From NCBI GenBank assembly GCA_964612595.1, contig CAZTFB010000003.1, positions 32,272 through 96,271 on the forward strand: a stretch of DNA of 64,000 bases, read 5' to 3'. The notes beneath the pieces are model-generated. The model saw only the letters and a list, made by a program, of their open reading frames with translations, had not been told where the DNA came from and made no database searches. The position numbers and the translations under genes were made by a program. The DNA is from an uncultured Gammaproteobacteria bacterium. GTDB taxonomy: Bacteria > Patescibacteriota > Microgenomatia > UBA1406 > HO2-37-13b. Below are positions 1 through 51,443 of the stretch, in pieces (the first letter of the stretch is position 1; every line of letters begins with the position of its first letter).

Positions 1-1023
1 TCTAGAGTGGAGTAGAGAATAGAGCTTTCTGACAATATATTCTCATATTTCCCGCATCTCATAGTATGAAATTTAATATAGAAATATACAGGGACGTATT
101 GGAGAACTATAGCAGAAACAATCCAGAACTCATTTCGCCAACATACACACAAATCGGAGAAATGCACATCTATTAAGTATAAGCTATGATTCTACACTAC
201 CCTCGTTGGACGTTTGGGTGACGTCGTAAAAGATACAATTTACGACGTCGCATAAACAACATTCCCCGCAACGATGGATATCACATAAGACACATATAGG
301 ACACTTCTCACAGAGTGATGGTAGAAAACACCTCACTAGACATAGGTGTCACCATATTTTTTGATTTTGTCATTGCAATTGCGTATTGATACGTATTAAT
401 GTTTCTATCTATTGCTACCACTCACAACCACTCTCGTGATTTGATGAACTTTCCTAATTTAGCGCATCATATCAAACTATTCGTAAATCTTTGAGCTTAA
501 TTTTAATTGACTTTAGTGTGTCTTTGTAAAAACAATTCAGTTTAGAGCCTTATATCTATCTATTCGCTCACTTTTAGCCTCACAACTATATCAAAAGCAT
601 TCAATTTTCCATTGCAATTTAGAGCGTTACAATAATCTTTTTATTAACTTTTGAGGCTATTTTCCGCTGCTAAGTAATGTATGAATTAGCAGTTATCCAC
701 ATCAGTGCCAGCCCCTTCTCGAGAGTGAGGGTGTCCGCAATGTGGTATGCAATAGCAATCTAATCTAAGCAGACTATCTATCTACGCTTAATTTTCTTAC
801 CATTTCATATTCATGAGCACACGAGCCAAAAGTACTTTCTCACGTCTCGCCTTTCATAAATTACACGTACGTGAGTTTTTAATAAATACTATAGGATATA
901 ATACTATGGGCCATTTACTATAGGATACAACATTCACGTTCGTGAAATCTGCTTCTCCCCTCTCCTCTACTGCGACCTGTCACATTATGAAGTTCTGAGC
1001 TCACAATAATAAACAATTTGATT

Positions 1024-15809: not shown

Positions 15810-17066
15810 ATGAAAGTAGCAAATTTCATGCGAACCTCGGTGGTTTCGGTATCTTCAGACGAACCCGTGCGAACGGTAACCCGTCTTATCTTCAACCTTG
15901 GTATAAAAAGCGTTCCCATATGTGACGATGGGAAACTAGTCGGTATCGTTACCGAAGAAGACATTCTTACAAAACTCTTCCCTTCTGTACGGGATTTTAT
16001 GGAAGATCGCGCCCATGCTGATGATTTTGAGGCTATGGAAAAAAATTTGGGCGCACTGATAAATAAACCCGTTAAAAAAATAATGACGAGCAAACCCAGG
16101 GTTGTTCATGCGGATCTCCCCATTATGCAAGCTCAATCACTCATGATTGTCGGGAAAATAAGTCATCTCCCCGTTGTTGATGATCAAAAGAAACTAGTTG
16201 GAATTATTTCACAAGGTGACATATTTAGAGCCATTGTAGGCCAAGAAATACCATATGATGACAATGAAGAATATCATGCGTGGCTCTCGCGCCATTGGGA
16301 CCTTGTCGTACCTTGGAAACAACGACTCAGTGGTGAAATTGCTGCGTTCAATAAACTATTCGAAAAGAAATATTCGTATCGCATTCTTGATATTTTCTGC
16401 GGTACCGGCGAACATGCCATCGCTCTTGCCCGTGAGGGCTACGATGTAACTGGTATGAATAAATACATTCTTATGCATAATGCTGCGACGAAAAAACACA
16501 CGCAACTTCCTGAGTACCTCCAAAGACGCATCGAATTTGTCCATGGCGACTATATTGATCTTTTGAAGGATAAAAAGGAAGACTACGACGCAGCAATATT
16601 TATGGGCAACTCTCTCGCCCATAATCCGCATGATTATAAAAAAATCATCAAAACAACAAGCCAAAGTCTCACAAAGAAAAATGCGATAATGATCTTGCAG
16701 ATTGCTAATTTCGATAAAATTCTTGAAAATGGAGGCCTCCAGGATTTCAATATGCGCCCCTCAAAACTTAACGATGACACAAAATACACCTTTATTGAGT
16801 TTTATGACAGTCCCAAAGTTACGGGAAAAAAAGATCTGCTTACGCTCAACATGGCGATATTACGCCACGTTGGTCATCGATGGACCTTCGCTGCTATGAA
16901 TAGCACCCCGATCGCCTATATATCGCCAGATATTATTACTGCAGTTCTAAAAGAGGCTGGATTTAAAAAAGTTGAATTATTCGGTAGCCGCTTTTTAGAG
17001 CCCCTCTTTGAACATAAATTCTCTGTCTCCGATCACGATTGGCTGAACGTGATCGCTTCGCGATAA
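15810..17066 (+). CDS. CBS-pair + class I SAM-dependent methyltransferase fusion protein
   Basis: N-terminal CBS pair (VGIVTEEDIL, VGIISQGDIF). C-terminal methyltransferase motif I (ILDIFCGTGEHAIALAREGYDVTGMN). Confidence 0.7.
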   Translation: MKVANFMRTSVVSVSSDEPVRTVTRLIFNLGIKSVPICDDGKLVGIVTEEDILTKLFPSVRDFMEDRAHADDFEAMEKNLGALINKPVKKIMTSKPRVVHADLPIMQAQSLMIVGKISHLPVVDDQKKLVGIISQGDIFRAIVGQEIPYDDNEEYHAWLSRHWDLVVPWKQRLSGEIAAFNKLFEKKYSYRILDIFCGTGEHAIALAREGYDVTGMNKYILMHNAATKKHTQLPEYLQRRIEFVHGDYIDLLKDKKEDYDAAIFMGNSLAHNPHDYKKIIKTTSQSLTKKNAIMILQIANFDKILENGGLQDFNMRPSKLNDDTKYTFIEFYDSPKVTGKKDLLTLNMAILRHVGHRWTFAAMNSTPIAYISPDIITAVLKEAGFKKVELFGSRFLEPLFEHKFSVSDHDWLNVIASR

Positions 17067-17150
17067 GACCGCAACCTCTCGAGGATCGCTCCTCGACTTG
17101 AAATATTCCCCTCCGTTTGATATAATGCTATAGGTTGTTTTCGACCCCCA
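17055..17150 (+). promoter_or_regulatory. repeated promoter module, copy 1 (33-bp identical box + TTGAAA-17-TATAAT + CTATAGGTTGTT)
   Basis: TTCGCGATAAGACCGCAACCTCTCGAGGATCG is identical to 17616-17648. It is followed by -35 TTGAAA, a 17-nt spacer and TATAAT. It begins inside the last codons of the CBS-MTase gene. Confidence 0.5.
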
Positions 17151-17237
17151 CTCAGCGAGATGATGAACCATAAGCTGTAGAATGAAGATTGTTACAGGAG
17201 TAGTCGGTTGTAAGACTGAGCTACCCAAATTTTTTGA

Positions 17238-17320
17238 GTGATAATTTGATTCACCCAAAGTGGATTAGATTGCCGCCCAAAACGTACTGAGCCTGGTCGG
17301 CGTAAAAAAGGGAGTTTCCA
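17238..17320 (+). ncRNA. conserved ~50-nt leader element (copy A) preceding a small ORF
   Basis: GAGTGATAATTTGATTCACCCAAAGTGGATTAGATTGCCGCCCAAAACGT is about 85% identical to 18282-18331. It contains a hairpin whose 3' arm differs between copies but stays complementary. RBS AAAAGGGAG follows. Confidence 0.35.
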
Positions 17321-17515
17321 GTGGGTTTCGCACCACCAGTTGTTTCACAAACGACCGAAGTGGAAGCCGTTGTTGAAATCACTTGCGAGTGGCGTGATGC
17401 AGGTGGAGAAGTCCATCTTACGGTCTATAATGGACCTGAAGGTGATCTCGCGGGATACCTAGAAAAGTTTGGAGAGAGTCGAAACTGGACATTAGTGTCC
17501 AAGCAACGGCGTTGA
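17321..17515 (+). CDS. small high-GC hypothetical protein (64 aa, GTG start)
   Basis: ORF immediately after the leader and RBS. GC about 58%. Terminated by a G8CC/GGC7 hairpin. Confidence 0.4.
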   Translation: MGFAPPVVSQTTEVEAVVEITCEWRDAGGEVHLTVYNGPEGDLAGYLEKFGESRNWTLVSKQRR

Positions 17516-17540
17516 TCTCTCCGGACAAACCAACTCCAAT

Positions 17541-17563
17541 GGGGGGGGCCTCCGGCCCCCCCT
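17541..17563 (+). terminator. GC-rich hairpin (GGGGGGGGCC-TCC-GGCCCCCCC)
   Basis: 9-10 bp G/C stem 26 nt after the small-ORF stop, followed by TCCATACTTTCTG. Confidence 0.35.
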
Positions 17564-17615
17564 CCATACTTTCTGTGAAATTCTCAAAAGACCATCTGTA
17601 CCCCTATCATACTCA

Positions 17616-17712
17616 TTCGCGATAAGACCGCAACCTCTCGAGGATCGTGGCAGACTTGAAAAATCATCTTCTTTTTAGTATAATACTATAGGTTGTTCTT
17701 AACACACAGCGA
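17616..17712 (+). promoter_or_regulatory. repeated promoter module, copy 2 (drives the LysM gene)
   Basis: Same 33-bp box, TTGAAA-17-TATAAT and ACTATAGGTTGTT as copy 1. ATG of the LysM gene at 17721. Confidence 0.5.
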
Positions 17713-17720
17713 GGTGAAGC

Positions 17721-18188
17721 ATGAGCGGTAAAATGAAAATCGCAACTGCTGTTGGGCTCTTCCTACTATGGGTTGGTGTGAGCAATAAGCTCCAACCAAT
17801 CAACTTTGGAGGCAGCTCGAACGAGGAGGTTGCGGTCAGCGGCTCGGTGGATACCAGCGCTTGCGCGGGGGTTCACTGGGTCAAGCCTGGCGAAACACTG
17901 AGCAACATTGCAGCGCGATACGGGCATACCGTCATCGCACTCGCACAGGCAAGCAACATCTCGAACCCGAACAAGATCAGTATCGGGGAGAAGGTCTGCC
18001 TGCCCAAGAGCCCAGCGCCAAAGGTCGCAGCCTCAAGCTGCAGCCAACAACATGTCGTCGCCGAAGGCGACACATTGGAGAAGATCGGCAGGCAGTACGG
18101 GACGACGGCTGGGGTGTTGGCGAGCAAGAATGGGCTCGCCAATCCGAATTACATCATACCCGGATGGAAGCTCTGTGTGAGCCCTTAG
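17721..18188 (+). CDS. secreted tandem-LysM peptidoglycan-binding protein
   Basis: N-terminal signal or anchor helix. Two LysM modules (HWVKPGETLSNIAARYGHTVIALAQAS...IGEKVCLP; HVVAEGDTLEKIGRQYGTTAGVLASKNGL...PGWKLCV). GC about 58%. Confidence 0.8.
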   Translation: MSGKMKIATAVGLFLLWVGVSNKLQPINFGGSSNEEVAVSGSVDTSACAGVHWVKPGETLSNIAARYGHTVIALAQASNISNPNKISIGEKVCLPKSPAPKVAASSCSQQHVVAEGDTLEKIGRQYGTTAGVLASKNGLANPNYIIPGWKLCVSP

Positions 18189-18216
18189 GGGCAAGCTCAG
18201 ACGAACAAAGACAATC

Positions 18217-18254
18217 GGTGACCTAGTCGCAACGTGCGTTGCGACTAGGTCACC
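18217..18254. repeat. perfect 38-nt palindrome (17-bp stem, 4-nt loop) after the LysM gene
   Basis: GGTGACCTAGTCGCAAC-GTGC-GTTGCGACTAGGTCACC. No downstream U-tract. Could be a terminator or a protein-binding site. Confidence 0.5.
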
Positions 18255-18281
18255 ACAGTACCTTGCAATAAAAAGGTTTGA

Positions 18282-18365
18282 GTGACAGTTTAATTCATGC
18301 AAAATATGGATTAGATTGCCGCCCAAAACGTTCACAGTCGGGGCGGTCCAGGAAAGGTATAGGAG
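18282..18365 (+). ncRNA. conserved leader element (copy B)
   Basis: GAGTGACAGTTTAATTCATGCAAAATATGGATTAGATTGCCGCCCAAAACGT, with CCGCCC/GGGCGG hairpin and RBS GGAAAGGTATAGGAG. Confidence 0.35.
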
Positions 18366-18512
18366 ATGGACATCTATTATATCGTCACGTATGTGACGAA
18401 GGATGGCGAGACCAAGACTCAGATTGTCAGCTCTGACAACCTCGAGTGGTTCAAGAGCTACGTCGCCTCACAGGGCGGCAGTGTCATTCATATTTCTTCT
18501 AAAATCTTTTAG
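18366..18512 (+). CDS. small hypothetical protein (48 aa) not in the ORF track
   Basis: ATG 7 nt after the RBS. Translation MDIYYIVTYVTKDGETKTQIVSSDNLEWFKSYVASQGGSVIHISSKIF. High GC. Confidence 0.35.
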   Translation: MDIYYIVTYVTKDGETKTQIVSSDNLEWFKSYVASQGGSVIHISSKIF

Positions 18513-18677
18513 TATACTCACCTATTTTGCCTCTGACCCCATAAAAACGGGATTTTGATTATATAGATGAAAATTTAAGAAGAAAAATGAAAATATATAC
18601 CGTACAGGTGCCAGCGGCCTAACCGCTGGCACCTGTCTCGGTACCTTCATTCGATAACACATCTCCTTTCTGGACCT

Positions 18678-19442
18678 CTAGGTCCATTTGCCGTTGCTAG
18701 CCCAGCTTGCCAGTGACTTTAACATCAGTGCATAGCCGGGACCAGCACTGATCCTCTTCTCTCTTGGCCGTTGCAAGCTTGTCGGCCACCACATTCCGCG
18801 ACGTGGTAGGAGAAGTCGTCTCTCTTTGTCTGAACCCCTCACCGTGAACTTCACCACGGTCAGATCCAGAACCATTTCCGACCAGACCACTCCCTCGAGG
18901 TCTACCTTTTCAGGCAGCTGTATGTCATCCAGCTCAATAACCCACATCTGCCCCGCCCGATCCCAGAACCATGAGGTGGAGTACACCAGACGCTTGCTGT
19001 CGGTGTGAATCTCAACTCTCAAGAACAGCAGCTCGATGAGGCTGATATGAGCTGCATGCCGAGCAGAGAGAGAGAACAAGCCCATCCAAGGCTTCGGGAG
19101 AACGATGACCGTGGGTCGAACATCCATGGCCATCTTCCCATCGCCCTCGTCACGCTCCCACAGATCTGTTCTGAACCTGAGCGGATTACCTCCCTCTTTG
19201 CGAGGAGTGGTGCGGTTCTGCTTTCTGGTCAAATGTGACCTCAGCCAGCCCGAAAGCCGGTAGATTGCCACCATAGGCCAGTCCAGCAGAGTTGTCTCAC
19301 TGGTGGGGGCGGCTTGCTGTGTGCTTGCCGCCCTCTCATCGGATGCAGGTTTTGAGCTCTGCAAGGACGCGATGAAGCTTCTCACCTGACCAGAAAGCCA
19401 GTAGACCAGCTCCATTGGGAGGTCAAGAATCTTGTCGATCAT
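18678..19442 (-). CDS. hypothetical protein (254 aa) in high-GC island, with an internal N-terminal repeat
   Basis: Two copies of a D(L/W)PMxxxYxLSGxxRS motif near the N-terminus. GC about 58%. No recognised domain. Confidence 0.45.
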   Translation of the reverse strand: MIDKILDLPMELVYWLSGQVRSFIASLQSSKPASDERAASTQQAAPTSETTLLDWPMVAIYRLSGWLRSHLTRKQNRTTPRKEGGNPLRFRTDLWERDEGDGKMAMDVRPTVIVLPKPWMGLFSLSARHAAHISLIELLFLRVEIHTDSKRLVYSTSWFWDRAGQMWVIELDDIQLPEKVDLEGVVWSEMVLDLTVVKFTVRGSDKERRLLLPRRGMWWPTSLQRPREKRISAGPGYALMLKSLASWASNGKWT

Positions 19443-19451
19443 ACTGACCTC

Positions 19452-20498
19452 CTACTGAATGTGGCTCAAGCCACGCCAGATCTGCGCCCAGCAGGTCGTT
19501 CCCTGCACGTTCATGAGCACTTCGACCCGAGGCACCTCGTTGGCCCTGTTGTTGCGGATGCTTCGCGGATCGAAGCGATGCTTAGTTCCGCTAGCAAGGA
19601 TCTTGCTCCCGTTATCCCAGACACACGGGATACCTGCAGGAGCATCGATCACAAGCCAACTCGTGAACACCGATGTTAGTGCATCAGGTCCATCGCCGGT
19701 CGAGACGACCGGCGCAGGCCCCGGCGCGGACGCCGGGGCCTGGCTCTGCTGATCAACCTGGATGAAGATGCCCTTCGGGTAGTGCCGGGGGCCAAGGTCA
19801 CCGGTTCCATCCAGTGCCTTGCCGTTCATGGCACCCAAACCCTTCACGGCAGCTTCGGTCAGGGTGATCTTGACGATGCCGTAGTCGCTGTTTTCCCTGT
19901 CATTGCAGGTCATCTGCCACTCCTGAGGGCCGAACCACGGATCATCGACCATGGCAAACGCACAGCGAACCCCGATCGGGATCTGGGCCGATGTCGCATC
20001 GCCATTCGTATGGTAGTGATTGCCTCTGAACCAATTCCCCCAGGCAACAACCGGCTTCTCGTACTCCTGATGGTACTTGATCGGCGTCGCCGTAGGGGCT
20101 GGTGTTGGCTTGATGATCTCGATGTTGGCACCGTCCTCGGTGTACGTATCGGACGCCGGCCCGCTGCTGTGAGAGTCGCCAGACGTGTCGCTTCTTTCCT
20201 GGATCTGGACCGAGTCGTTCACGGCCAAGATGTCGCCATCGAGGACGTTGTCCACTCCGTTGGAAAGAACGTCATCTACCTGAGCCCGCTCGGCTCCCTT
20301 GGCGAGGAACTTGAAGCCGAGGTCCGTCACCGGCCAGAAGCCGATGGTGATGCTGAAGAACATGATGAGCATGCCTCCGATCACCGTAAGCGCGTTCTCG
20401 ACCTTCAAGCCGTTCGTCTTGACGTCGCGGATGCCCGCGACAATCAGGAGCAGAGCGAGACCAAAGGCGATCAGTGCGTTCAGGACGCTGTTTTCCAT
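19452..20498 (-). CDS. membrane-anchored hypothetical protein (348 aa) in high-GC island
   Basis: Two N-terminal TM helices, a Ser/Thr/Pro-rich linker, and a C-terminal globular domain of unknown fold. Confidence 0.45.
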   Translation of the reverse strand: MENSVLNALIAFGLALLLIVAGIRDVKTNGLKVENALTVIGGMLIMFFSITIGFWPVTDLGFKFLAKGAERAQVDDVLSNGVDNVLDGDILAVNDSVQIQERSDTSGDSHSSGPASDTYTEDGANIEIIKPTPAPTATPIKYHQEYEKPVVAWGNWFRGNHYHTNGDATSAQIPIGVRCAFAMVDDPWFGPQEWQMTCNDRENSDYGIVKITLTEAAVKGLGAMNGKALDGTGDLGPRHYPKGIFIQVDQQSQAPASAPGPAPVVSTGDGPDALTSVFTSWLVIDAPAGIPCVWDNGSKILASGTKHRFDPRSIRNNRANEVPRVEVLMNVQGTTCWAQIWRGLSHIQ

Positions 20499-20513
20499 CT
20501 GAGTGACCTCCTG

Positions 20514-22997
20514 TCACTGTTGTGCCAGCCACCCGAGGGCGGCTAGCTGCGGATAGGTCTCCAGCATTGCCTTCCACGATTGGCAGTCGTAGCCGTTTGT
20601 GTTATTCGAAGACGTGCAGGAGTTATTTACGGGCCAGCGACGATCAAAGAACATCATCCCGACCCGATTGTTATCCGACACGCCATAGTGAGACTTAGTC
20701 TTCTGCAGACTCTCCCACTTGGCGGAAGCGCCTCCGAAGCCATCGTTGATCACAACGAATCGAAGGCCCGGGACTCCACCGAAGTCGGCATTGTTGCCTC
20801 CCATCGAATGGAACACGTCCCAGACCAACACTATACCCTCGCCCTTCAAGCCAGCCTTTTCTCGAGCTCTTGCAAACTCTTGAGCAACTTGCTTGACGTC
20901 AGCGAAAGTCAGCGCCGTGTTGTGCTCTTGGTCAACCACGATGCCATCCAATCCAAGTGGCGTTAGCTGAGTAATCCCCTTGCGAAGATCCTCGACCTTA
21001 CCACTCGTATCGAGCAGAACCATGGTGCCATTGGCATGAGCAGTTGGAATCAACTTCACGAAATGATTCATCGTGAAGCCAGAGTGTAGTACGGGTACGA
21101 CAACCGGAGTTGCCGACCTACTCGTTGCGCCTTCTACAGCGCTAGCCCAACTCCTCGCTGCCCCAACGATCTGGTCTTCGGAACAGGTATTCCCGAGCGT
21201 TCCTGGCCCACCGTTTGTACATGGCCACCCCCAGACAGGAGTGAAGAGGCCCGTTGCAGGTACCTCAAACGCGTACGACCGGCTGACACCAGTGAATTTC
21301 TCGAGAACCGAAGCGTCGAAGGTCACGTTACTGTAATTCCTCAGGAAGCGAAGAGCTCCCATTTCGTGCGTCCGGATGGACATGCCGAAGAGGAATGCCA
21401 GCATCATGATCTGGACGTAGTAAACCGCGAATTGAACCCAAAGCCCTTTCAGACTCCCATTCTCGCTCTTGATAAAGTACCGGATAATCAGCCCCATCGA
21501 ACGAAGGGGCACGATGATCACAGCACCCATCGCAAGCAAGATGGCAAGCAAAAGGAGCGTTGGACCGAGCGCTAGTGCATAGGTAAGTGACGGACCTGAC
21601 TGCATGGGATTATTGCCTTGGTAAGGCTCATCCCACGGCCAATCTTCCGTCGATCCGCGAAGGCGATATTCCATTAGCTCAGGATCGAAGTATGTATCGA
21701 CCCTTTCTTGCCTCTGGTTCGCATCGCGGATTTCAAAGTGGACATGCGACCAGCCTGTCATACCAGTCATTCCCACTCTGCCTAGCACAGTTGATTGATC
21801 CACTTCTTGACCCGTCTTTACCATGACGTATCCTTCCGGATCGCCACTGGAACCAGACGGAATCTTGAAAGATGGATCTCGCTCATCAACAAGGTGGGCA
21901 TACACAGTGGAACGGCCGTCTGGATGCTTTATCCACACCCAGCAGCCATAGTTACCGGCGTTATTACAGCCGGCGTATTCCACCTTGCCCGGGGCGGCAG
22001 CACGCACAGCAGCAAGCTGCACCGCGCTGAGATCCCACGCATTCACAGAACACCGACCGGTCTTCACCGGACCAATGATCGTGCACTGCGTGTGATCGTC
22101 TTCATCGGAGCTGATGGTATTGCTGGCAACCGGAAGGCGCCAGCCATCCTTACCCACAAGTCGTCCGTCCCTGAAACCGTCTACCAGCTCTGGTCGTTGC
22201 ACGATCAAATCGGGCTTGAACCAGTTAATGGGAAGACTGAACAGGAACTTCTGGGTTGCGAGGACAGGATGGTTGTAGACCTTCAGACGGTTCTCCACGT
22301 TGTTGTCAGAGACTAATAGCGATGTTTCGCTACACTCTGGCACATTGCATGGATCTCGTCTCCCATATTTTTCATGGGTAGCATAACCCATGTAATCTGC
22401 TCCGATCGACACAAAAGTCCAACCGGACAGATTCATGGGAGCCTTCGGATCATCCGCCTTTACAAAAACGCCTTTGTATCGTCTTGCAAAGTGAAGATGA
22501 GATCCACTAGTTCTACCGTACGCACAGTCAACACGACCGATCCGATCGCTCGCCTGCACCACTGTACCAACAGGTATGCGATCAGTATCGGACATGTGAT
22601 AGTACAGCAGCGACCACGAGTTGTTCGGGTCACCATCACCATCGAGGTCCACGATAACCTCTCCCTCTTTGGAGGTGGTAACCACTCCCGGGGCCGCGGC
22701 AAGAACCCATTCATGCGATATTTCACAGCCCCTTGAAATAGGGACTGCGAAGTCAACTGCAGCAAATTGGCCATCTTTGTAGCCAAGGTGCGGTCCTCCC
22801 GAGTAAATCCATTTCTCCTCAGAGGAGAATGGCAAAAGTAGAGGTGGTTGTTGAGGCGCACGTGCAAGATCGACCCACGTGGAATCCATATGGGTTGAGT
22901 TCTGCGCGTAAACGACATTTTGTTCTTTTGTATGTGCTGAAAGGACGAAAGCCATGATGGCCACCGTCCTCAGCATGCGAAACGCTGGGGTGGTCAT
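20514..22997 (-). CDS. multidomain cell-wall hydrolase with two M23 (LytM-type) metallopeptidase domains, mid-protein TM segments and an uncharacterised C-terminal domain
   Basis: Signal peptide. M23 signatures GRTSGSHLHFARRY and GMTGMTGWSHVHFEIRD. Hydrophobic helices around residues 470-540. 827 aa, GC about 60%. Confidence 0.7.
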   Translation of the reverse strand: MTTPAFRMLRTVAIMAFVLSAHTKEQNVVYAQNSTHMDSTWVDLARAPQQPPLLLPFSSEEKWIYSGGPHLGYKDGQFAAVDFAVPISRGCEISHEWVLAAAPGVVTTSKEGEVIVDLDGDGDPNNSWSLLYYHMSDTDRIPVGTVVQASDRIGRVDCAYGRTSGSHLHFARRYKGVFVKADDPKAPMNLSGWTFVSIGADYMGYATHEKYGRRDPCNVPECSETSLLVSDNNVENRLKVYNHPVLATQKFLFSLPINWFKPDLIVQRPELVDGFRDGRLVGKDGWRLPVASNTISSDEDDHTQCTIIGPVKTGRCSVNAWDLSAVQLAAVRAAAPGKVEYAGCNNAGNYGCWVWIKHPDGRSTVYAHLVDERDPSFKIPSGSSGDPEGYVMVKTGQEVDQSTVLGRVGMTGMTGWSHVHFEIRDANQRQERVDTYFDPELMEYRLRGSTEDWPWDEPYQGNNPMQSGPSLTYALALGPTLLLLAILLAMGAVIIVPLRSMGLIIRYFIKSENGSLKGLWVQFAVYYVQIMMLAFLFGMSIRTHEMGALRFLRNYSNVTFDASVLEKFTGVSRSYAFEVPATGLFTPVWGWPCTNGGPGTLGNTCSEDQIVGAARSWASAVEGATSRSATPVVVPVLHSGFTMNHFVKLIPTAHANGTMVLLDTSGKVEDLRKGITQLTPLGLDGIVVDQEHNTALTFADVKQVAQEFARAREKAGLKGEGIVLVWDVFHSMGGNNADFGGVPGLRFVVINDGFGGASAKWESLQKTKSHYGVSDNNRVGMMFFDRRWPVNNSCTSSNNTNGYDCQSWKAMLETYPQLAALGWLAQQ

Positions 22998-23158
22998 CGG
23001 CCTTGTCCTTTCGAAGGTACCGAGTTGTCAAAGTTCAAAACTGAGTCTTTTCAGACACAGTCCTCCCACACATTGCGGAAGGGAATATATTATACCACGA
23101 GACACAAAAAATAGACTTATAGCAATAAACTACAAGCTTTTTTAAAAAGATTTCGCAG

Positions 23159-36726: not shown

Positions 36727-39153
36727 ATGACCGCGCTTTCGTATTTGCAAATTCGTACGCCTAAAGAGGATGAGACGCCTATTGAGGCGACAACTCAGAT
36801 TTTTTCCTCACTCCTACCCTCTTCCACAAAGTGGTGGAAAGTTATTTTTAAGAAACAGGTTGGCTATAGCTTCGAAATATATCTTTTGGGTCAACGCATT
36901 TATTTTTATCTCACCACACCTACATCGAAAGAAACATTCGTAAAAAGCTTGATTGCTTCTTCATTTCCTTCTTCAGCAGTGGTAAAAACAAAAGATCCGC
37001 TCGATTTTGTCCTTTCATCGCCGTATATAGCTACTGGCGAGGCTGTTTTAACAAACGACTTCTATTTGCCCATTAAATCCTATACTGAATTTAAGGGGGT
37101 CGACTCCCTTGCTTCGCTAGTTGGATTTCTTGCTAAAGGATCAACACAACAAAAAGCCGTCATGCAGGTTCTAATTACACCCGCAACGTTCCCATGGCAA
37201 AAAATGGCTAATAAACTCGCGAACCCTGCCCCATCAGCAGATGGCGAAAAAGCCGCTCCAGTCTCGGGAAGAGCGCTTATAGGCCAAAAAACAGCCTATC
37301 TGGGCGGTAAAGCACTAATAAGGATTCTTGTGGGGTCTGGTGGCCCTGAGGCAGGTACGTTTATGGATCATCTCATCGGAACCTTTGGCGCCTTCGCCAT
37401 GGGCGAAGGCAATCAATTTAAGCTCAAAAAGCCACGTGATAAAAAAGCATTTGTTTTGAGCGTAAAAGAGCGTGCAACACATTTTTTTGAGCATCGAGGT
37501 CAGATTTTGAACTCAGCTGAGCTCACCACATTATGGCATCCACCAGGCCTTATGCTCGCAGGAGTAAAAAATATAGCTTGGGGAAAGACACTTGCTGGTG
37601 AGCCTCCAGAAAATATTCCGATCCCTGAAGGCATGAGTGATGAAGAGAAAAAAGATGTTAACTTCTTCGCTCGAACTGAATATAAAAATAAAGAACAGAT
37701 TTTTGGTATTAAAACATATGACCGACGAAAACACGTCTATATTATTGGTAAAACAGGCGCAGGTAAATCGACGCTTATTGCTAATATGGCAATCGACGAT
37801 ATTCGCCGTGATCGAGGTGTTGGTATTATTGACCCCCACGGCGACCTCACCGAAGCTGTGCTTGATTATGTGCCTAAGCGACGTATAAACGATATTGTGT
37901 ACTTAGAACCGTTTGATCTTGAGCGTCCGTTCCATTTGAATATTCTCCAGGTTCCAAATCCTGAGCAAAAACACTTAGTAGCCTCAGGTATTGTATCGAT
38001 TTTCTATAAATTATATGGAGATGTAAGCTGGGGACCTCGTTTAGAGTATATTTTGCGTAATCTTGTGCTTACTTTGCTCGACATTCCTAATGCAACGCTC
38101 CCCGATGCGCTGCGCATCTTAGCTGATGATAAATATCGCGCGCGCGCGCTTGAAGATGTGCGCGATCCGGTCGTAATGGCTTTCTGGAAGAAGGAATTCG
38201 ATAAAATGCCGGATCGTATGAAAGCTGAGGCCGTCTCACCTCTTCAGAATAAGATTGGCCAGTTTGTGACGGCGCCTATGATTCGTAACATTATCGGAAG
38301 CCCCAAATCGACCATTGACCTCGCTGAAATTATGGATGAGCGTAAAATTCTCCTTTTGAACCTATCTCAGGGAAAACTTGGAGAAGATAATGCAGCACTT
38401 CTTGGTGCTATGTTTATTACGCAACTTCAGCTCGCCGCTATGAACCGCGCGTTCAAAAAAGAAGAAGAGCGTCAAGATTTCTTCCTGTATGTCGATGAGT
38501 TCCAAAACTTTGCCACAAGCTCATTTATTAAAATACTCTCTGAGGCAAGAAAATATCGCCTTGCACTCACGTTAGCAAATCAATATATCGATCAGCTCGA
38601 CGAAGATGTCAGTCGCGCTATATTCGGTAACGCGGGCACACTCGTTTCCTTCCTCGTCGGCGCCCGCGATGCAGACCCACTTTCCAAAGAATTTGGAGGC
38701 ATCTACTCAGACAAAGATCTCGTATCGCTTGGAAAATTTGAAATTGTGCTTAAACTCTCTGTTGATGGTCAAACATCTATGCCGTTCCCCGCGCGTACGC
38801 TCCCGCCGCCTAGCCTCAAAAATGACAACCGAGAAAAAATTATCCGCCTTTCTAAAGAGAAATATGGACGCCCTGCTCCAAGCACAGATACAATCAGCAC
38901 GCGCTCATACCCAATTTCAGAACCAAGCACAAGTAAAGTTGAAAAGCCAGTTGTAGAACCACAAGAAGTACCAAGCAAACCACAAAATAGCACAAGTATT
39001 GCCCATATTGTCCGCTCGCACGAAGAAAAGTCGTCTCAACCTCATCGACAGCCACATCAGGGTAGTTCAAGTCAAGGCAGTGGTCAAAATAGGTCCAGAA
39101 ACAACCGTTCACGTCCAAGACATTCTCAGAGACCTTCCGAGCGTAGATCTTAA
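36727..39153 (+). CDS. FtsK/HerA/VirB4-superfamily P-loop ATPase (probable type IV secretion / conjugation ATPase)
   Basis: Walker A (YIIGKTGAGKST) followed by IDPHGD, and Walker B (FFLYVDEFQNF). No TM helices. The about 110-aa C-terminal tail is S/Q/R-rich low complexity. Confidence 0.55.
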   Translation: MTALSYLQIRTPKEDETPIEATTQIFSSLLPSSTKWWKVIFKKQVGYSFEIYLLGQRIYFYLTTPTSKETFVKSLIASSFPSSAVVKTKDPLDFVLSSPYIATGEAVLTNDFYLPIKSYTEFKGVDSLASLVGFLAKGSTQQKAVMQVLITPATFPWQKMANKLANPAPSADGEKAAPVSGRALIGQKTAYLGGKALIRILVGSGGPEAGTFMDHLIGTFGAFAMGEGNQFKLKKPRDKKAFVLSVKERATHFFEHRGQILNSAELTTLWHPPGLMLAGVKNIAWGKTLAGEPPENIPIPEGMSDEEKKDVNFFARTEYKNKEQIFGIKTYDRRKHVYIIGKTGAGKSTLIANMAIDDIRRDRGVGIIDPHGDLTEAVLDYVPKRRINDIVYLEPFDLERPFHLNILQVPNPEQKHLVASGIVSIFYKLYGDVSWGPRLEYILRNLVLTLLDIPNATLPDALRILADDKYRARALEDVRDPVVMAFWKKEFDKMPDRMKAEAVSPLQNKIGQFVTAPMIRNIIGSPKSTIDLAEIMDERKILLLNLSQGKLGEDNAALLGAMFITQLQLAAMNRAFKKEEERQDFFLYVDEFQNFATSSFIKILSEARKYRLALTLANQYIDQLDEDVSRAIFGNAGTLVSFLVGARDADPLSKEFGGIYSDKDLVSLGKFEIVLKLSVDGQTSMPFPARTLPPPSLKNDNREKIIRLSKEKYGRPAPSTDTISTRSYPISEPSTSKVEKPVVEPQEVPSKPQNSTSIAHIVRSHEEKSSQPHRQPHQGSSSQGSGQNRSRNNRSRPRHSQRPSERRS

Positions 39154-40993: not shown

Positions 40994-41002
40994 CTAGGTT
41001 CC
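40994..41002. repeat. 9-bp direct repeat CTAGGTTCC (left copy) at the left edge of the high-GC island
   Basis: Recurs at 43305-43313, and partially at 43260 and 43290. GC jumps from about 35% to over 60% some 40 bp to the right. Confidence 0.4.
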
Positions 41003-41262
41003 CTATCGTGGATTGGAGCACCATTATCTATTTACATAATGTTCCAATCTACAATGGGGGGCCTAGGAGCTAGAGGCTGCGGGCAGGCAGCTTTGGCTGT
41101 TAGGCCTCCCATTGAATCGATAACTCAGGCCGCGGGCGCGAACGCCCGCTGCGGACAGCAATGTTCCGCTGCGGTGCATACCGCGTCTGAGGCCATTCAA
41201 CCATCCACACACATCTCGTTTTAGCTCGAAAGAGCAGTCCGCTTAAGGAGGCGGAGAAAGTC

Positions 41263-41481
41263 ATGGACAGTGTTTTCGGTCGGTTCCTGCTCAAGCAGGC
41301 GGCGGCGGCGGTGCTCGGTTTCATCAGCACCATCGTCGTACTCGGTGTGATCCTCTTCATCCAGAACAACTACATGGGCGGCGTCTTGAACGCCGGTGTG
41401 TTCTTGTTCATCGGATGGGGGGTCAGCTGGAACTGGTGGTTCTCCACCATCTGCTTCTTCATGGACCACAGCGACAGCTAA
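41263..41481 (+). CDS. small two-TM membrane protein (72 aa), high GC
   Basis: RBS AAGGAGG upstream. Two hydrophobic helices. Confidence 0.4.
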   Translation: MDSVFGRFLLKQAAAAVLGFISTIVVLGVILFIQNNYMGGVLNAGVFLFIGWGVSWNWWFSTICFFMDHSDS

Positions 41482-41512
41482 CCTACGCAAACGAACTAAG
41501 GAGAAACAGCAC

Positions 41513-43150
41513 ATGAACGCGAAGCTCATCAAGTTCTTGCTCATCGCCGTCCTGGCGGTGAGCACCATGGTCCTCACGGGTTGCACCGCTTTCGGCGGAC
41601 CGAATTCCGGGAAGCCGGCTTCGGAGATGACCGTCAGCGAGGCGCTCGGGCTCGGCAACGCCCAGGCCTCCGAGGCCGTGACCGGAACGCAGCAAGTGGC
41701 AGTCGTCGGCGAGACGATCGACGCGGCGCAGTACGCCGCGGACGTCCAGCGCACCATCGATGAGGTGGCGGGGCTCGAGGCGGCGATCCGCAACGAGGGC
41801 TATACGTGGGCTGACGACGTGAAGACCTGCAGTGGCAACACGCAGGAGAAGCACGTCTGCGCCAACACGGCCCTTGCGAAGATCAAGAAGGCCTTCCCCG
41901 ACCTGGTCGTCGGCAGCGGTGGCAATACCGCGGTCGCGAACCAGGCGCAGGTCGCAATCGGTGCGTTGAGCCAGGCGAATAGATGGGCAACGTCCGTTTG
42001 GATCTGTCTGAAGCCCGGTGAGACATTGACCGGCCCCTCCCTCAGCGGCAAGACGATCACCGTAGGCTACCCCAAGGGCGCGAAGCTCATCAAGGTAGCC
42101 ACCGGCGAGATCGTGAACCTCGAGGAATGTGGGTCGGTCTGTCACCCGAACGAGGACGCCAACGGCAAGCCGACGTCCAACGCCGAGTGCCACATCTACA
42201 ACGTCGTTGTTCCCCCGCCTGGCGGTGGTGGCAGCGGTGGAAGTGGCGGTGCAGGCGGACAAGGCGGAGCCGGAGGCGCAGGTGGTGCTGGCGGAGCCGG
42301 AGGCGCAGGTGGTGCTGGCGGAGCCGGAGGCGCAGGTGGTCGGGGTGGCGAAGTTCCCCCGCCGTTCTGGTGCTTCTGGTGCCCGCCGCCGTGCACGACG
42401 TGTCCGACGCCGGTGCCGCCGACGAACACGCCGATCGTCATCAACGACGGCTGCGTCGTCGGTTGCGGCCTGCACTGGAACTCCCCTCAGGAGGCCAGGG
42501 CTTACGGCTGCAACGGGCCGTTCGTGATCGGCAGCTGCCCCACGGCGACGCCGACGTTGGTTCCGACATGCGTCCCCGGATGCGTGGTCACGGTCGAGCC
42601 GACGGCGACGAACACGCCGAGGGGGCCGGTCGATACGGCGACCCCGCCGCCGACGTTCATTCCGCCGACGGCGACGCCAACGGCTACGGCGACGGTGGCG
42701 GCGTGTACCTTCGAGTGGTACGCGGTCTGCGCGAACAGCGCGGTCTGCCCGAGGGGGAACGTTATCCCCAAGGGCGAGGCCGTGCTCATCCAGGTGATCA
42801 ACCGTGACGACACGGCGAAGGTCACCCGGGTTTGGCTCCGGGTTCAGCAGGTCAACCCTGACAAGGTGGACACGCAGGACCTGGTAACGCCTGGGGGGTA
42901 CCAACAGACCGACGGTTGGATCTTCAAGTGCCCGCAAGGCGCGCTCGATGCGGTGACCCCCGACATTCCGTCGTTCCTCGCAGCTCAGCTGCGGAGTCAG
43001 TGGAACGTCATCACCTCCGGGCGGGCCGGGTACGATAAGGTCGTACCGACCGGTTCCGGATGGACCGTGCGCGTCTGCCACGCGTACGAAGACGGCCGAG
43101 GATGGCAGCCGGTTCCCGGCTTCAATCCGGCCGTAGGCTGCGGCGAGTAA
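41513..43150 (+). CDS. lipoprotein with Gly/Ala tandem repeats and a Pro/Thr/Cys-rich region (545 aa), high GC
   Basis: RBS AAGGAGA. Lipobox LTGC after the signal helix. (GAGGAGGAG)n tract, then PPPFWCFWCPPPCTTCPTPVPPT and further C-rich modules. GC about 65%. Confidence 0.6.
   Translation: MNAKLIKFLLIAVLAVSTMVLTGCTAFGGPNSGKPASEMTVSEALGLGNAQASEAVTGTQQVAVVGETIDAAQYAADVQRTIDEVAGLEAAIRNEGYTWADDVKTCSGNTQEKHVCANTALAKIKKAFPDLVVGSGGNTAVANQAQVAIGALSQANRWATSVWICLKPGETLTGPSLSGKTITVGYPKGAKLIKVATGEIVNLEECGSVCHPNEDANGKPTSNAECHIYNVVVPPPGGGGSGGSGGAGGQGGAGGAGGAGGAGGAGGAGGAGGAGGRGGEVPPPFWCFWCPPPCTTCPTPVPPTNTPIVINDGCVVGCGLHWNSPQEARAYGCNGPFVIGSCPTATPTLVPTCVPGCVVTVEPTATNTPRGPVDTATPPPTFIPPTATPTATATVAACTFEWYAVCANSAVCPRGNVIPKGEAVLIQVINRDDTAKVTRVWLRVQQVNPDKVDTQDLVTPGGYQQTDGWIFKCPQGALDAVTPDIPSFLAAQLRSQWNVITSGRAGYDKVVPTGSGWTVRVCHAYEDGRGWQPVPGFNPAVGCGE
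42266..42340 (+). repeat. 27-bp tandem repeat (about 2.8 copies) encoding the Gly-Ala tract
   Basis: GGAGCCGGAGGCGCAGGTGGTGCTGGC repeated head-to-tail inside the lipoprotein gene. Confidence 0.7.
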
Positions 43151-43168
43151 CCGCAGCCGAACGAGTTT

Positions 43169-43216
43169 GGGCAGGGCGCGGCCTTCGGGAAGCGCCCTGC
43201 CCGGCTCGGGCTTTTT
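43169..43216 (+). terminator. intrinsic terminator after the lipoprotein gene
   Basis: GGGCAGGGCGC-(12-nt loop)-GCGCCCTGCCC, an 11-bp stem, then GGCTCGGGCTTTTT. Confidence 0.65.
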
Positions 43217-43304
43217 ACAGAACAAGCTCAAGGAATTACGTAGCCAATTGCTGGTTACCGTAGGTTCTTGCTGACTTAACTGTATAAGCATAGGTTCCTG
43301 AACC

Positions 43305-49455: not shown

Positions 49456-50138
49456 GGAGTTGGGGTTGCGTTATGACGATAGTAGCCTCGGATACATGCA
49501 TTACTGCTTACCTGTTGGCCTTTATTATCGAAGTACGTAAGACAGTCTCCCCAATCATCTCCTGTATTACTGCCGTCGTAGTAGGCATCGATCTCATCAT
49601 CGGTCGTTAGGCTTTGTGGTGGTTGAGAAGTTGGTGCGGATGTTGGCAACAATGTCTCAGGTGTTGTTGGCTGTGGATCAACAACATCAGGAGTCGATGG
49701 ACTTGGTGTTGCCTCAAGCAATACAGACCCTGCGTCACCTGCGGATGCCTTAGGCACCTCAACGATCCTGTCTTCATCTCCACCTGGTGCTGAACAGTAG
49801 CTTTGGTTCGCAACAAGAGGTTGTAACGTAACCTTATGCTCAAAATTGCCATCACCTATCGCTACAGGATCAGTAAGTTCTTCAGCAATAAACACCAAAT
49901 TACATTTCTGTATCCCTTCTGGAGGCATACTTGCATATAAGACCGTTCCTCTTGACTGGTCATTGCTGTTCCACGTACATTCTGCATCAACAGCGCTTTT
50001 CCTTACACAGGTGTAATTTTCAGCAACTCCCGCTTGTGAACCACGTTTCTGAACAATACGAAAGCCAATATATATTAAGAGAACTGATAAGACAAATCCT
50101 ATAGCTATTGCAGCGAATTTTTGTGATTTTTTGTTCAT
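49452..50138 (-). CDS. N-terminally anchored secreted protein, Pro/Thr-rich C-terminus
   Basis: TM helix (FAAIAIGFVLSVLLIYIGFRIV). Four Cys in the ectodomain. PTTPETLLPTSAPTSQPP tail. Confidence 0.4.
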   Translation of the reverse strand: MNKKSQKFAAIAIGFVLSVLLIYIGFRIVQKRGSQAGVAENYTCVRKSAVDAECTWNSNDQSRGTVLYASMPPEGIQKCNLVFIAEELTDPVAIGDGNFEHKVTLQPLVANQSYCSAPGGDEDRIVEVPKASAGDAGSVLLEATPSPSTPDVVDPQPTTPETLLPTSAPTSQPPQSLTTDDEIDAYYDGSNTGDDWGDCLTYFDNKGQQVSSNACIRGYYRHNATPTP

Positions 50139-50806
50139 ATTCGTAATAGTGCCTTAGCACCAAGTCCAACTATCATAAAGCCAAATCCGATCATACCATA
50201 AACTATAAAATCTTCAACAATACCAGTTCTGGGAAGCTCACTCGGCGTTTTTGCACTACCCGAGGAGGTCTTTGGTTTTGGATTTGTTGCACTACTTCCA
50301 CCAACCGTCACAACAGCCTCTCCATTTAGGGAGCATTGGATAAGATCTGGTGCATCGGTTGATTTTTCGGAAATGTTTGATTCATTCGTCTCGCCAGTTT
50401 CACATGTGTACGTAAAGGTTGTTTTCCCACCAGCAAGCGCTTTACATTGGAGTGTGGCGAGGACACCCTCCCCTGTTATTGATTCTCCAGGATTTGAAAC
50501 CACCCCAGCGATATAAATCTTTCCAGGTTGCGAGAACTCCTTAATACCTATTTCAAGAAAATCACCATCAGTTATACTTTCGATTTCGCAAATCGCAGGA
50601 TCATACTCAATAAGCGCATCAACACCAAGTATCTCTTTTTCCTCAGCGTCAACGACCACATCAAGCTTAAATGTTTCGCCGACATTTGTGCTAACCGTAC
50701 TAGGATCGAACTTTAGTGTTGCGGCAGATACAACACTAACAATGGGCGCGACTATGAGAAATGCGCCAAGTATAAATATGGTGCTTATGATGCGATTCTG
50801 TATCAT
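50135..50806 (-). CDS. cohesin-like domain surface protein with LPXTG-type sorting signal (LPRTG)
   Basis: Signal peptide. Cohesin-like beta-sandwich pattern (LKFDPSTVSTNVGETFKLDVVV...IEYDPAICEIESI...GEGVLATLQCKALAGGKTTFTY). C-terminal LPRTG plus a hydrophobic helix and KALLRI. Confidence 0.55.
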   Translation of the reverse strand: MIQNRIISTIFILGAFLIVAPIVSVVSAATLKFDPSTVSTNVGETFKLDVVVDAEEKEILGVDALIEYDPAICEIESITDGDFLEIGIKEFSQPGKIYIAGVVSNPGESITGEGVLATLQCKALAGGKTTFTYTCETGETNESNISEKSTDAPDLIQCSLNGEAVVTVGGSSATNPKPKTSSGSAKTPSELPRTGIVEDFIVYGMIGFGFMIVGLGAKALLRI

Positions 50807-51439
50807 TTAATTTATTTGCAATGACATTCCTTGCACATTGCTTAATATATCCTGTGTTTGTGTATTCATGAGATTAGAATCGGTAGTATGATTTGGCGAA
50901 AATACCATGTCAATAGAAGCGGTTCCTGATTTTAAGAGACTAAAGGTTACTTCTGCTATAGGTGTCTGTGCAAAAAGGTATGGCTCTTCCTGACTAATGC
51001 TTTGAATGCCTGTCACCACAAGATCCTGTAAGCCAGCAATCTCTGATGGCGTGCTTGTTTGATACAAATCCATTCCTTCCGCAAGTGACGTTACTTTATC
51101 TAGTTTGAGTAGTGTCGGATCATAGCGCAAAACAGCATCATATCCCGTTATTCGATCGCCTTTTGAATCGGCAGTGATCGTAATCGTTACAAGATCACCT
51201 TTGCGATACGACGGCTTCGCTGTTTTATCAGTCATACTCAAAACACCCGTCAAGGGTGCCAATGTGGGCTCAACTGGCTCAACAAACCGGTTTATCAAGT
51301 TTTTTTCTTTAACGATATACTTCTCGGGCAATTTTCGCTGTGCAACATACATAATTCCCCCTATCACCAATACAATGCCAACAACTGAAAATATTCCTGT
51401 TAAGAGCATCTTGTTTTTTATTTCTCTGTCATCTTCCAT
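50807..51439 (-). CDS. membrane-anchored cohesin-like domain protein
   Basis: N-terminal TM helix. Domain (VTITITADSKGDRITGYDAVLRYDPTLLKLDKVTS...AEVTFSLLKSGTASIDM) is paralogous to 50135..50806. Confidence 0.5.
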   Translation of the reverse strand: MEDDREIKNKMLLTGIFSVVGIVLVIGGIMYVAQRKLPEKYIVKEKNLINRFVEPVEPTLAPLTGVLSMTDKTAKPSYRKGDLVTITITADSKGDRITGYDAVLRYDPTLLKLDKVTSLAEGMDLYQTSTPSEIAGLQDLVVTGIQSISQEEPYLFAQTPIAEVTFSLLKSGTASIDMVFSPNHTTDSNLMNTQTQDILSNVQGMSLQIN

Positions 51440-51443
51440 AATA

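Follow-up and report, generated by a model that had tools for sequence, protein, structure and literature searches.

A covariation-supported RNA stem-loop confined to one LysM-gene neighbourhood of Microgenomates bacteria is a candidate mRNA processing or stability element

The RNase III stem-loops of the T7 early region (for example R1.1) and of the E. coli rnc and pnp leaders are single, long, imperfect stems of about two helical turns with small mismatches. They lie between cistrons or in a 5' leader, leave the ribosome-binding site (RBS) clear and keep their structure over their sequence. Here, we describe an element that shares all these features in a 64,000-nucleotide (nt) stretch of contig CAZTFB010000003.1 (assembly GCA_964612595.1), referred to below as the window, from an uncultured Microgenomates bacterium of the candidate phyla radiation. 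The element is a conserved RNA stem-loop of ~50 nt, present in two copies in the window (c1 and c2) and in three further copies in two related genomes (c3, c4 and c5). It differs from the RNase III stem-loops in that there is no sequence relation, the 3' arm is unusually invariant, cleavage is only proposed and the host belongs to the candidate phyla radiation.

Other described systems resemble the element in part. The stabiliser hairpins of the ompA type in 5' untranslated regions (5'-UTRs) are cis-acting leader stems that affect half-life rather than ribosome binding, as we propose for the element; they occupy the very 5' end of the transcript, whereas c1 lies ~100 nt past a predicted start and the other copies would be internal unless processed. 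The Correia elements (NEMIS) of Neisseria and the REP/BIME sequences are short intergenic inverted repeats that are co-transcribed, as the element would be, and form hairpins, and Correia elements are RNase III targets. However, Correia, REP and BIME sequences come in tens to hundreds of copies, in both orientations, as palindromes or terminal inverted repeats at the DNA level, while the element described here has two to three copies per locus, one orientation and RNA-specific pairing. Riboswitches and attenuators share the 5' leader location and, in one copy, a possible alternative helix. Unlike them, the element has no Rfam match, no multi-helix aptamer, no terminator with a U-tract and no sequestered RBS, and the alternative helix is not conserved.

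The integron site attC is likewise an imperfect, strand-specific hairpin with a conserved base, fixed mismatches, a variable top and adjacent small promoterless genes without homologues. The stem base of our element is 5'-TTTGAGTG...CGCCCAAA-3' with TTTG/CAAA outermost, while the attC boxes RYYYAAC/GTTRRRY have AAC/GTT innermost. In addition, the element is unstable as single-stranded DNA (ssDNA), has no integrase nearby and does not follow every cassette. Each stem end agrees with the attC boxes at six of seven positions in the opposite polarity, and the resemblance was dropped.

The stem-loop has 20-22 pairs, is rich in G.U and has two 1 x 1 mismatches in the lower stem. In every copy these pairs extend over 23-25 stacked positions. 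From base to top, c1 and c2 consist of 4-5 pairs, an A.C mismatch, 3 pairs, a second A.C mismatch and 13-14 pairs under a 5-nt loop, with UUUGAGUGAYARUUURAUUCA as the 5' arm and GGAUUAGAUUGCCGCCCAAA as the 3' arm; about a quarter of their pairs are G.U. All copies together give a consensus of one unbranched helix (22-25 pairs) with a loop that varies in length (3-8 nt) and sequence, and with no multi-helix core or aptamer.

Folded as RNA of the sense strand, the five copies reach -18.1, -18.5, -20.1, -23.0 and -20.6 kcal/mol (z -3.2 to -5.7), and 0-1 of 200 shuffles are as good. For c1 (-18.1 kcal/mol, z -5.68) and c2 (-18.5 kcal/mol, z -4.89), none of the 200 shuffles matches. On the opposite strand, four of the five copies lose 8-11 kcal/mol and fall to between -9.5 and -10.4 kcal/mol (z -1.7 to +1.1; c1, -9.5 kcal/mol and z -1.26; c2, -10.4 kcal/mol and z -1.65). 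Folding as ssDNA is also similar to that of shuffles, with -3.0, -3.7 and -7.7 kcal/mol and z between -0.1 and -0.9 (c1, -3.0 kcal/mol and z -0.46; c2, -3.7 kcal/mol and z -0.11). Since the opposite-strand and ssDNA folds are both shuffle-like, we conclude that the structure is a property of sense-strand RNA; the pairing relies on G.U pairs that only this strand offers. Strand-asymmetric folding was flagged in 144 regions across the whole window, so that asymmetry alone is not distinctive and we relied on the shuffles and on covariation instead.

Strand asymmetry together with the DNA folding ruled out a DNA operator, a cruciform or an ssDNA site. A promoter within the element (TTGAGT as the -35 hexamer, the loop or TAGATT as the -10 hexamer) was also rejected: the spacing differs among copies (15, 17 and 15 nt), the hexamers are poor, none is in the promoter scan, and the compensatory changes would be left unexplained.

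In the window, the element is the core of a repeat that the first-pass annotation had reported as two similar segments, each followed by an RBS and a small open reading frame (ORF). Both parts of that description hold. An exact 25-mer, TGGATTAGATTGCCGCCCAAAACGT, is shared by 17261-17285 and 18307-18331 and is otherwise absent from the 64 kb (0 of 100 shuffles), and the segments lead, each through a purine-rich RBS, to ORF64 (GTG at 17321, 64 amino acids (aa)) and ORF48 (ATG at 18366, 48 aa). With a 2-nt indel the repeat spans 17233-~17311 and 18277-~18357 (27 nt at 81% plus 51 nt at 78% identity), and its copy number in the window is two. Identity between the two copies is 83-85% over the hairpin part. 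The similarity of the ORF64 leader to the c2 leader runs to ~17311 (78% over 51 nt including the 25-mer). Between c1 and the ORF64 GTG there are 38 nt, and the promoter P_A1 lies ~100 nt before c1; c2 lies 22 nt past the GC-rich hairpin of LysM155, the gene between the two copies, and 38 nt upstream of the ORF48 ATG.

The hairpin proposed in the first-pass annotation is a different one. It pairs a 5' arm GCCGCCC with a 3' arm GGTCGGC in copy 1 or GGGCGGT in copy 2, and was described as covariation-like. In fact, the 5' arm is the same in both copies and nothing is compensated: the 3' arm differs at two positions, with a change from G-C to G.U at one and, at the other, a C.U mismatch that remains in copy 1. 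The 51-nt windows containing this hairpin fold no better than shuffles (-9.1 kcal/mol, z +0.34; -14.4 kcal/mol, z -1.0), and it is not present in the hairpin copies of the related genomes. It was therefore rejected as a functional unit on the grounds of its shuffle-level fold, its lack of two-sided changes and its absence from relatives. The stronger hairpin was overlooked, even though the segment under study held most of its 5' arm, its loop and its 3' arm. Thus, the idea of a cis-acting structured RNA common to the two small ORFs is supported, with another structure than the one first drawn.

To find further copies, we searched for short conserved sequences and with covariance models. The 185,579 representative genomes contain one exact match to a 20-mer of the 3' arm, located in Microgenomates bacterium OLB23 (LMZU01000024.1, locus L001), and viral contigs contain none. 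A degenerate 23-mer in metagenome contigs gave one unrelated tandem-repeat contig without a 5' arm, which was treated as a chance match. The OLB23 locus is syntenic with the window and contains, in order, the CBS-methyltransferase gene, a promoter, LysM104, a GC hairpin, LysM150, a GC hairpin, c3 and a convergent gene. c3, the copy after LysM150, is orthologous to c2. The first-pass annotation had advised building a covariance model from its two copies; a model from c1-c3 detected the diverged copy c4 between LysM104 and LysM150 in OLB23 (28.4 bits, E ~1e-6). A third syntenic genome, the Joint Genome Institute (JGI) metagenome contig L009, was reached through a LysM155 homologue with 65% identity. 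Here, c5 occupies the same site as c4 (-20.6 kcal/mol, against -9.5 kcal/mol on the opposite strand), and no hairpin follows the second LysM gene. LysM155 orthologues in OLB23 and L009 are flanked by other hairpin copies.

The covariance-model scores of c1 were 80.7 and 72.3 bits. A scan of the 64 kb with filters off returned c1, c2 and one doubtful match, the possible distant copy c6, which lies in a ~1-kb stretch without long ORFs (1-1020) at the start of the window. With the five-copy model R2, the match (210-261) scores 20.7 bits, with E ~0.01 for the whole window. Its fold is stable (-23.3 kcal/mol, z -4.1) and nearly equal on the other strand (-21.2 kcal/mol), and its membership of the family is uncertain. 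The promoter-like motif TATAATRCTATRGG also occurs in this stretch, at 897-910, and elsewhere in the window only as the two promoters of repeat A described below (3 matches against 0.09 expected).

The Rfam search that had been recommended gave no match on the element: cmscan at gathering thresholds found only two tRNAs in the whole window, and a permissive cmscan of 16950-18700 produced only sub-threshold microRNA and small nucleolar RNA noise, none of it on the hairpin. Phage and plasmid searches returned no matches, the loci of the more distant LysM homologues P0006 and P0007 lack the hairpin, and literature searches on OLB23 and on noncoding RNA in the candidate phyla radiation yielded nothing relevant. 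One cluster member, P0013 (385 aa), is an unrelated protein and a clustering artefact. The element is thus confined to one gene neighbourhood in three related uncultured Microgenomates of the candidate phyla radiation and absent from RNA databases. It does not behave as a REP, MITE or Correia-type repeat, having few copies in one orientation, four of five of them (all except c4) not strand-symmetric.

The five copies allow the helix to be examined for covariation. In an alignment over the 22-pair helix, 91.8% of cells pair, compared with 82.8 +/- 2.1 in shuffles (0 of 500), and 7 of the 22 pairs carry changes on both sides, compared with 2.9 +/- 1.2 (0 of 500). When the partner is slid by 1-3 columns, pairing drops to 31-44% with 0-2 two-sided pairs. 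RNAalifold recovers the same helix independently with nine compensated pairs. When only c1-c3 are compared, one change is two-sided and four are one-sided, and none of them breaks pairing. The three genomes are about equidistant, with 74-76% nucleotide and 82-84% amino acid identity in the CBS-methyltransferase gene. On this background, identity is 85-87% between the orthologous c2 and c3, compared with ~60% for the adjacent LysM genes, 45-66% for the flanking spacers and 74% for a conserved housekeeping-type gene; it is 68% between the orthologous c4 and c5. Across copies, the sequence is best kept in the lower stem (YUUG-R-GUG-A-C with G-Y-CGY-N-YAAR), and covariation is seen in the upper stem. 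Together, our results demonstrate that the stem-loop structure is well supported.

We then asked what the stem-loop might do. Our preferred reading, which we hold tentatively and with a little less than even confidence, is that of an mRNA hairpin, intercistronic or in the 5'-UTR, that is restricted to this lineage and affects processing or stability. It would be transcribed with the genes of the LysM island that follows the CBS-methyltransferase gene, and would serve either as an RNase III-type processing site or as a stem that protects the adjacent cistron and so determines its half-life. Recognition could involve the conserved lower stem and the invariant 3' arm. Action on the transcript itself is suggested because the stem is long enough for a double-strand-specific RNase and leaves the RBS uncovered (none of the five copies overlaps one). 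RNase III needs about two helical turns of double-stranded RNA, which the 23-25 positions per arm provide; the stem thus offers the coaxial double-stranded RNA of at least ~20 pairs of an RNase III-type site, and its place in a transcript is deduced from the positions of promoters and terminators. All copies have the orientation of their flanking genes, and a start codon follows 38-50 nt downstream in four of the five, c3 being without a following ORF. In the relatives, the hairpin stands between cistrons: a LysM gene with its GC-rich hairpin precedes it, and the next start codon comes 40-50 nt later. The gap between c5 and the GC hairpin upstream of it is only 15 nt in L009, so that any transcript with c5 in it would have to start further upstream, which implies an intercistronic position.

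Several observations weigh against this reading. The covariation sample consists of five sequences from three related genomes, whose kinship inflates the shuffle-based statistics. c4 folds nearly equally well on both strands. c3 is well conserved in OLB23 with no ORF behind it, and therefore the element cannot act only on a downstream gene. The 3' arm and tail of c1-c3 (23 nt) are 100% identical and all substitutions fall in the 5' arm, which hints at sequence-specific recognition rather than recognition of generic double-stranded RNA. A Pfam scan found no RNase III gene within the 64-kb window. Finally, we infer the transcription, co-transcription and cleavage of the hairpin regions, and with them the function, from the arrangement of the locus.

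Because of the invariant 3' arm, the most serious rival is recognition by a dedicated RNA-binding protein, with the hairpin as its operator, or pairing of a trans-acting small RNA with the 3' arm; either would regulate the adjacent genes at translation or transcription elongation. We regard it as unlikely. An operator would explain why the lower stem has the best-kept sequence and its mismatches at constant positions while the upper stem is free to covary, and why c1-c3 agree in all 23 nt of 3' arm and tail; however, both mismatches become ordinary pairs in c5, and no complement to the 3' arm is found elsewhere in the window. This explanation also takes in the switch of the first-pass annotation. 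In c2, a two-hairpin conformation (the upper stem plus CCGCCC/GGGCGG) indeed has the lower energy (-23 to -24.3 kcal/mol, compared with -18 kcal/mol for the long stem). The balance is the other way round in c1 (-14.9 kcal/mol for the two hairpins, -17.3 kcal/mol for the long stem), and c3, c4 and c5 lack the alternative helix GCCGCCC/GGGCGG altogether, which makes a conserved switch unlikely. The RBS is never sequestered, and neither sequence reading nor the terminator scan revealed a U-tract after any copy. The stem is AU- and G.U-rich (37-44% GC), is followed by AAAAC and does not appear in the terminator scan list, so it is no intrinsic terminator. With a single plain hairpin and no Rfam match besides, the suggested riboswitch or attenuator finds no support.

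The hairpin might instead belong to what lies upstream, as a 3'-end or 3'-UTR element of the LysM transcripts (a second terminator or a stabiliser) or as a stand-alone small RNA, the proximity of small ORFs being incidental. Four of the five copies do lie 15-85 nt past the GC-rich hairpin of a LysM gene, and the ORF-less c3 would fit. We nevertheless consider this rather improbable: c1 follows a promoter and a six-codon remnant rather than a LysM gene, no U-tract follows any copy, the promoter scan detected no promoter of the hairpin's own, and the similarity between c1 and c2 extends 3' into the leader up to the RBS, not 5'. We attach a low probability to a functionless palindrome that decays after being copied with local duplications. 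The family is tiny and limited to one locus, and the arm differences of c1-c3 are all transitions, as the decay of a perfect palindrome could give; however, the hairpin is more conserved than the neighbouring genes, seven pairs show compensatory changes between the c1-c3, c4 and c5 lineages, and four of the five copies retain their pairing on a single strand.

Equally improbable in our view is the boundary of small mobile or duplicating cassettes composed of hairpin, leader and small ORF, with the hairpin as a recombination or insertion site similar to attC or to the hairpin end of an IS200/IS605-type element; the first-pass annotation had also proposed the conserved end of a small mobile cassette. 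The variable gene content directly 3' of the hairpin among genomes (ORF64, ORF48, LysM150/157 or none) speaks for it. The site after LysM155/150 holds ORF48 in the window and nothing in OLB23, and L009 has neither hairpin nor ORF there; the OLB23 homology ends exactly past CAAAAC, at the end of the hairpin; the ORF64 module sits between perfect 32-nt direct repeats; and both small ORFs lack homologues. Against it, the ssDNA structure is at shuffle level and depends on G.U pairs of the sense strand only, and the stem ends (TTTG...CAAA) have the polarity opposite to attC (RYYYAAC...GTTRRRY). No integrase, transposase, relaxase or reverse transcriptase was found among the 50 window ORFs compared with Pfam, no second copy follows ORF48, there is no phage or plasmid match, and the single exact 20-mer match among the representative genomes means no spread. 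A bolder version would make the hairpin, the ~35-nt leader and the tiny gene a self-contained module that is duplicated and exchanged at hairpin junctions in the candidate phyla radiation. In that case, an undescribed system, such as RNA-guided or hairpin-directed recombination or a dedicated regulator, would recognise the hairpin and control fast-evolving small effectors or inhibitors with a beta-beta-alpha-beta fold next to secreted cell-wall-binding proteins. The predicted models of the small proteins weakly resemble the phage inhibitors p56 and Dmd. This version is speculative, and we think it very improbable.

The features of the locus are collected in Table 1.

Table 1. Coordinates of the stem-loop copies and neighbouring features in the window
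Feature	Position	Strand	Description
Hairpin c1	17232..17282	+	5 pairs, A.C, 3 pairs, A.C, 13 pairs, loop CCAAA
Hairpin c2	18277..18327	+	Architecture of c1 with 14-pair upper stem, loop CAAAA
Possible distant sixth copy c6	212..257	+	GUUUG-G-GUGACGUCGUAAA ... UUUACGACGUCGC-A-UAAAC; in ~1-kb stretch without long ORFs at window start
ORF64 leader	17283..17320	+	3' arm of the first-pass hairpin GGTCGGC (17295-17301); RBS GGGAG (17310-17314)
ORF48 leader	18328..18365	+	3' arm of the first-pass hairpin GGGCGGT (18341-18347); RBS sequences AGGAAAGG (18350-18357) and AGGAG (18361-18365)
ORF64	17321..17515	+	GTG start, 64 aa; RBS GGGAG 6 nt upstream
ORF48	18366..18512	+	ATG start, 48 aa
Repeat A copy 1	17057..17150	+	32-nt exact repeat including last 10 nt of the CBS-methyltransferase gene, promoter P_A1, CTATAGGTTGTT
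Promoter P_A1	17098-17126	+	TTGAAA, 17 nt, TATAAT
Repeat A copy 2	17616..17708	+	Same 32-mer and promoter P_A2 (17656-17684), drives LysM155
Terminator-like hairpin after ORF64	17541..17564	+	GC-rich, GGGGGGGGCC UCCG GCCCCCCC; from terminator scan
LysM155	17721..18188	+	Two LysM domains, N-terminal hydrophobic segment; Pfam LysM E = 2.7e-27
GC-rich hairpin after LysM155	18217..18254	+	Perfect, 18 pairs, no U-tract on the + strand

The two small ORFs had been described as unrelated and of high GC content. The latter was overstated, as they have 50% and 46% GC compared with 42-43% in neighbouring genes. In ORF64, GC at codon positions 1, 2 and 3 is 0.66, 0.46 and 0.37; the third-position GC of ORF48 is 0.67, like that of LysM155. 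As to their relationship, BLASTP detects no sequence similarity, in agreement with the earlier view, but the predicted topology, beta-beta-alpha-beta, is common to both. Single-sequence AlphaFold2 models give ORF64 a predicted local distance difference test score (pLDDT) of 79.1, with a disordered 16-residue N-terminus, strands at 17-26 and 31-39, a helix at 40-51 and a strand at 56-63. The ORF48 model (pLDDT 94.4) has strands at 3-10 and 16-22, a helix at 23-35 and a strand at 39-47. The two proteins probably share this fold. A Foldseek search of the PDB gave no significant match for either model, and both draw the same small folds (phage p56, Dmd and YkzG) at E > 0.05. It is tempting to speculate that ORF64 and ORF48 may be diverged paralogues, duplicated along with the hairpin and leader.

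Neither ORF has a significant Pfam or PHROG match. Among 5.8 billion protein clusters, ORF64 finds only itself; ORF48 finds only its own species in these clusters and in Logan contigs. The only additions from an exhaustive phmmer search for ORF64 are repeat units in giant proteins: residues 12-48 resemble a unit repeated 6-19 times in metagenomic giant proteins of 1,395-6,085 aa (P0008 to P0011), and residues 31-62 are matched six times in P0012 (375 aa). In a three-genome alignment, the counterpart of the last eight ORF48 codons in L009 is homologous DNA that is plainly intergenic. The T-run at 18504-18508 before the ORF48 stop is 1 nt shorter in DRR774217 and SRR29243453 (loci L007 and L008), and a 63-aa ORF48 "variant" was dismissed as a frameshift from such a 1-nt change near the stop rather than a homologue.

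A second repeat around the element, repeat A (17057-17150 and 17616-17708), had also been overlooked. Its copies are identical over 32 nt (17057-17088 and 17616-17647) and then 73% identical over 56 nt, and the promoter scan scores the canonical promoter of copy 1 at 11/12. In OLB23 and L009 the repeat-A promoter is single and drives the first LysM gene, and copy 2 is the one closer to the OLB23 promoter. After P_A1 follow a six-codon remnant of a LysM start, c1, ORF64, a GC-rich terminator-like hairpin, P_A2 and LysM155. The 32-mer repeats flank a 559-bp module with ORF64, which looks like a duplication or a single-crossover insertion. Of the nine Logan contigs fetched for the locus, eight break at the 32-mer repeat. 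LysM155 is followed by its GC hairpin, c2 and ORF48. In this genome, the hairpin and ~30 nt of leader would have been duplicated and now stand before ORF64 and ORF48.

The 18-pair GC hairpin after the second LysM gene is itself kept in all three genomes (L001 ~1060-1100 on the - strand; L009 2506-2543) with compensatory changes (GGTGACC/GGTCACC versus GGTGGCC/GGCCACC). Its role may be that of a terminator lacking a U-tract or of a stabiliser at the 3' end. The region at ~17100-23000 is an island of higher GC (49-58%, third position 0.57-0.76) in a 41-43% GC genome. It lies between the CBS-methyltransferase gene and dnaB and encodes LysM155, unknown-function proteins of 254 and 348 aa and an 827-aa M23 peptidase. 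The island is common to OLB23 and L009, and its genes evolve fast (LysM at ~60% nucleotide identity). The OLB23 CBS-methyltransferase gene (L001 2254-3511) is split into two ORFs (200 and 242 aa) by a frameshift or an assembly error. In the JGI contig L010, the LysM102-c5-LysM157 block (1970-2500) is joined on the left to a prepilin peptidase operon and the first LysM gene is truncated, reflecting a rearrangement or a chimeric assembly.

Elsewhere in the window, an island of 60-68% GC at 41000-43300 has long overlapping ORFs on both strands (584 aa on + and 602 aa on -) without a Pfam match, and is bounded by a hairpin at 41053-41112 (-44.7 kcal/mol) and by a hairpin plus T-run at 43157-43216. 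Genes for a cohesin-domain and a dockerin-domain protein adjoin at 50135-54899, and the recombinase check came upon a TraG/TrwB-like coupling ATPase gene at 36727-39153.

To our knowledge, almost nothing is known about post-transcriptional control in bacteria of the candidate phyla radiation, which cannot be grown alone. The element is of a familiar kind, a leader or intercistronic mRNA stem-loop, and is new as a lineage-restricted instance. As a simple hairpin at one locus in three genomes with an inferred function, its general importance is modest unless a regulon or mobility emerges. It represents a covariation-supported small noncoding RNA element, present in no RNA database, that is attached to secreted-LysM genes and to two tiny proteins without homologues. 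Its covariance model provides a handle for wider searches, and the element offers a target for end mapping in metatranscriptomes.

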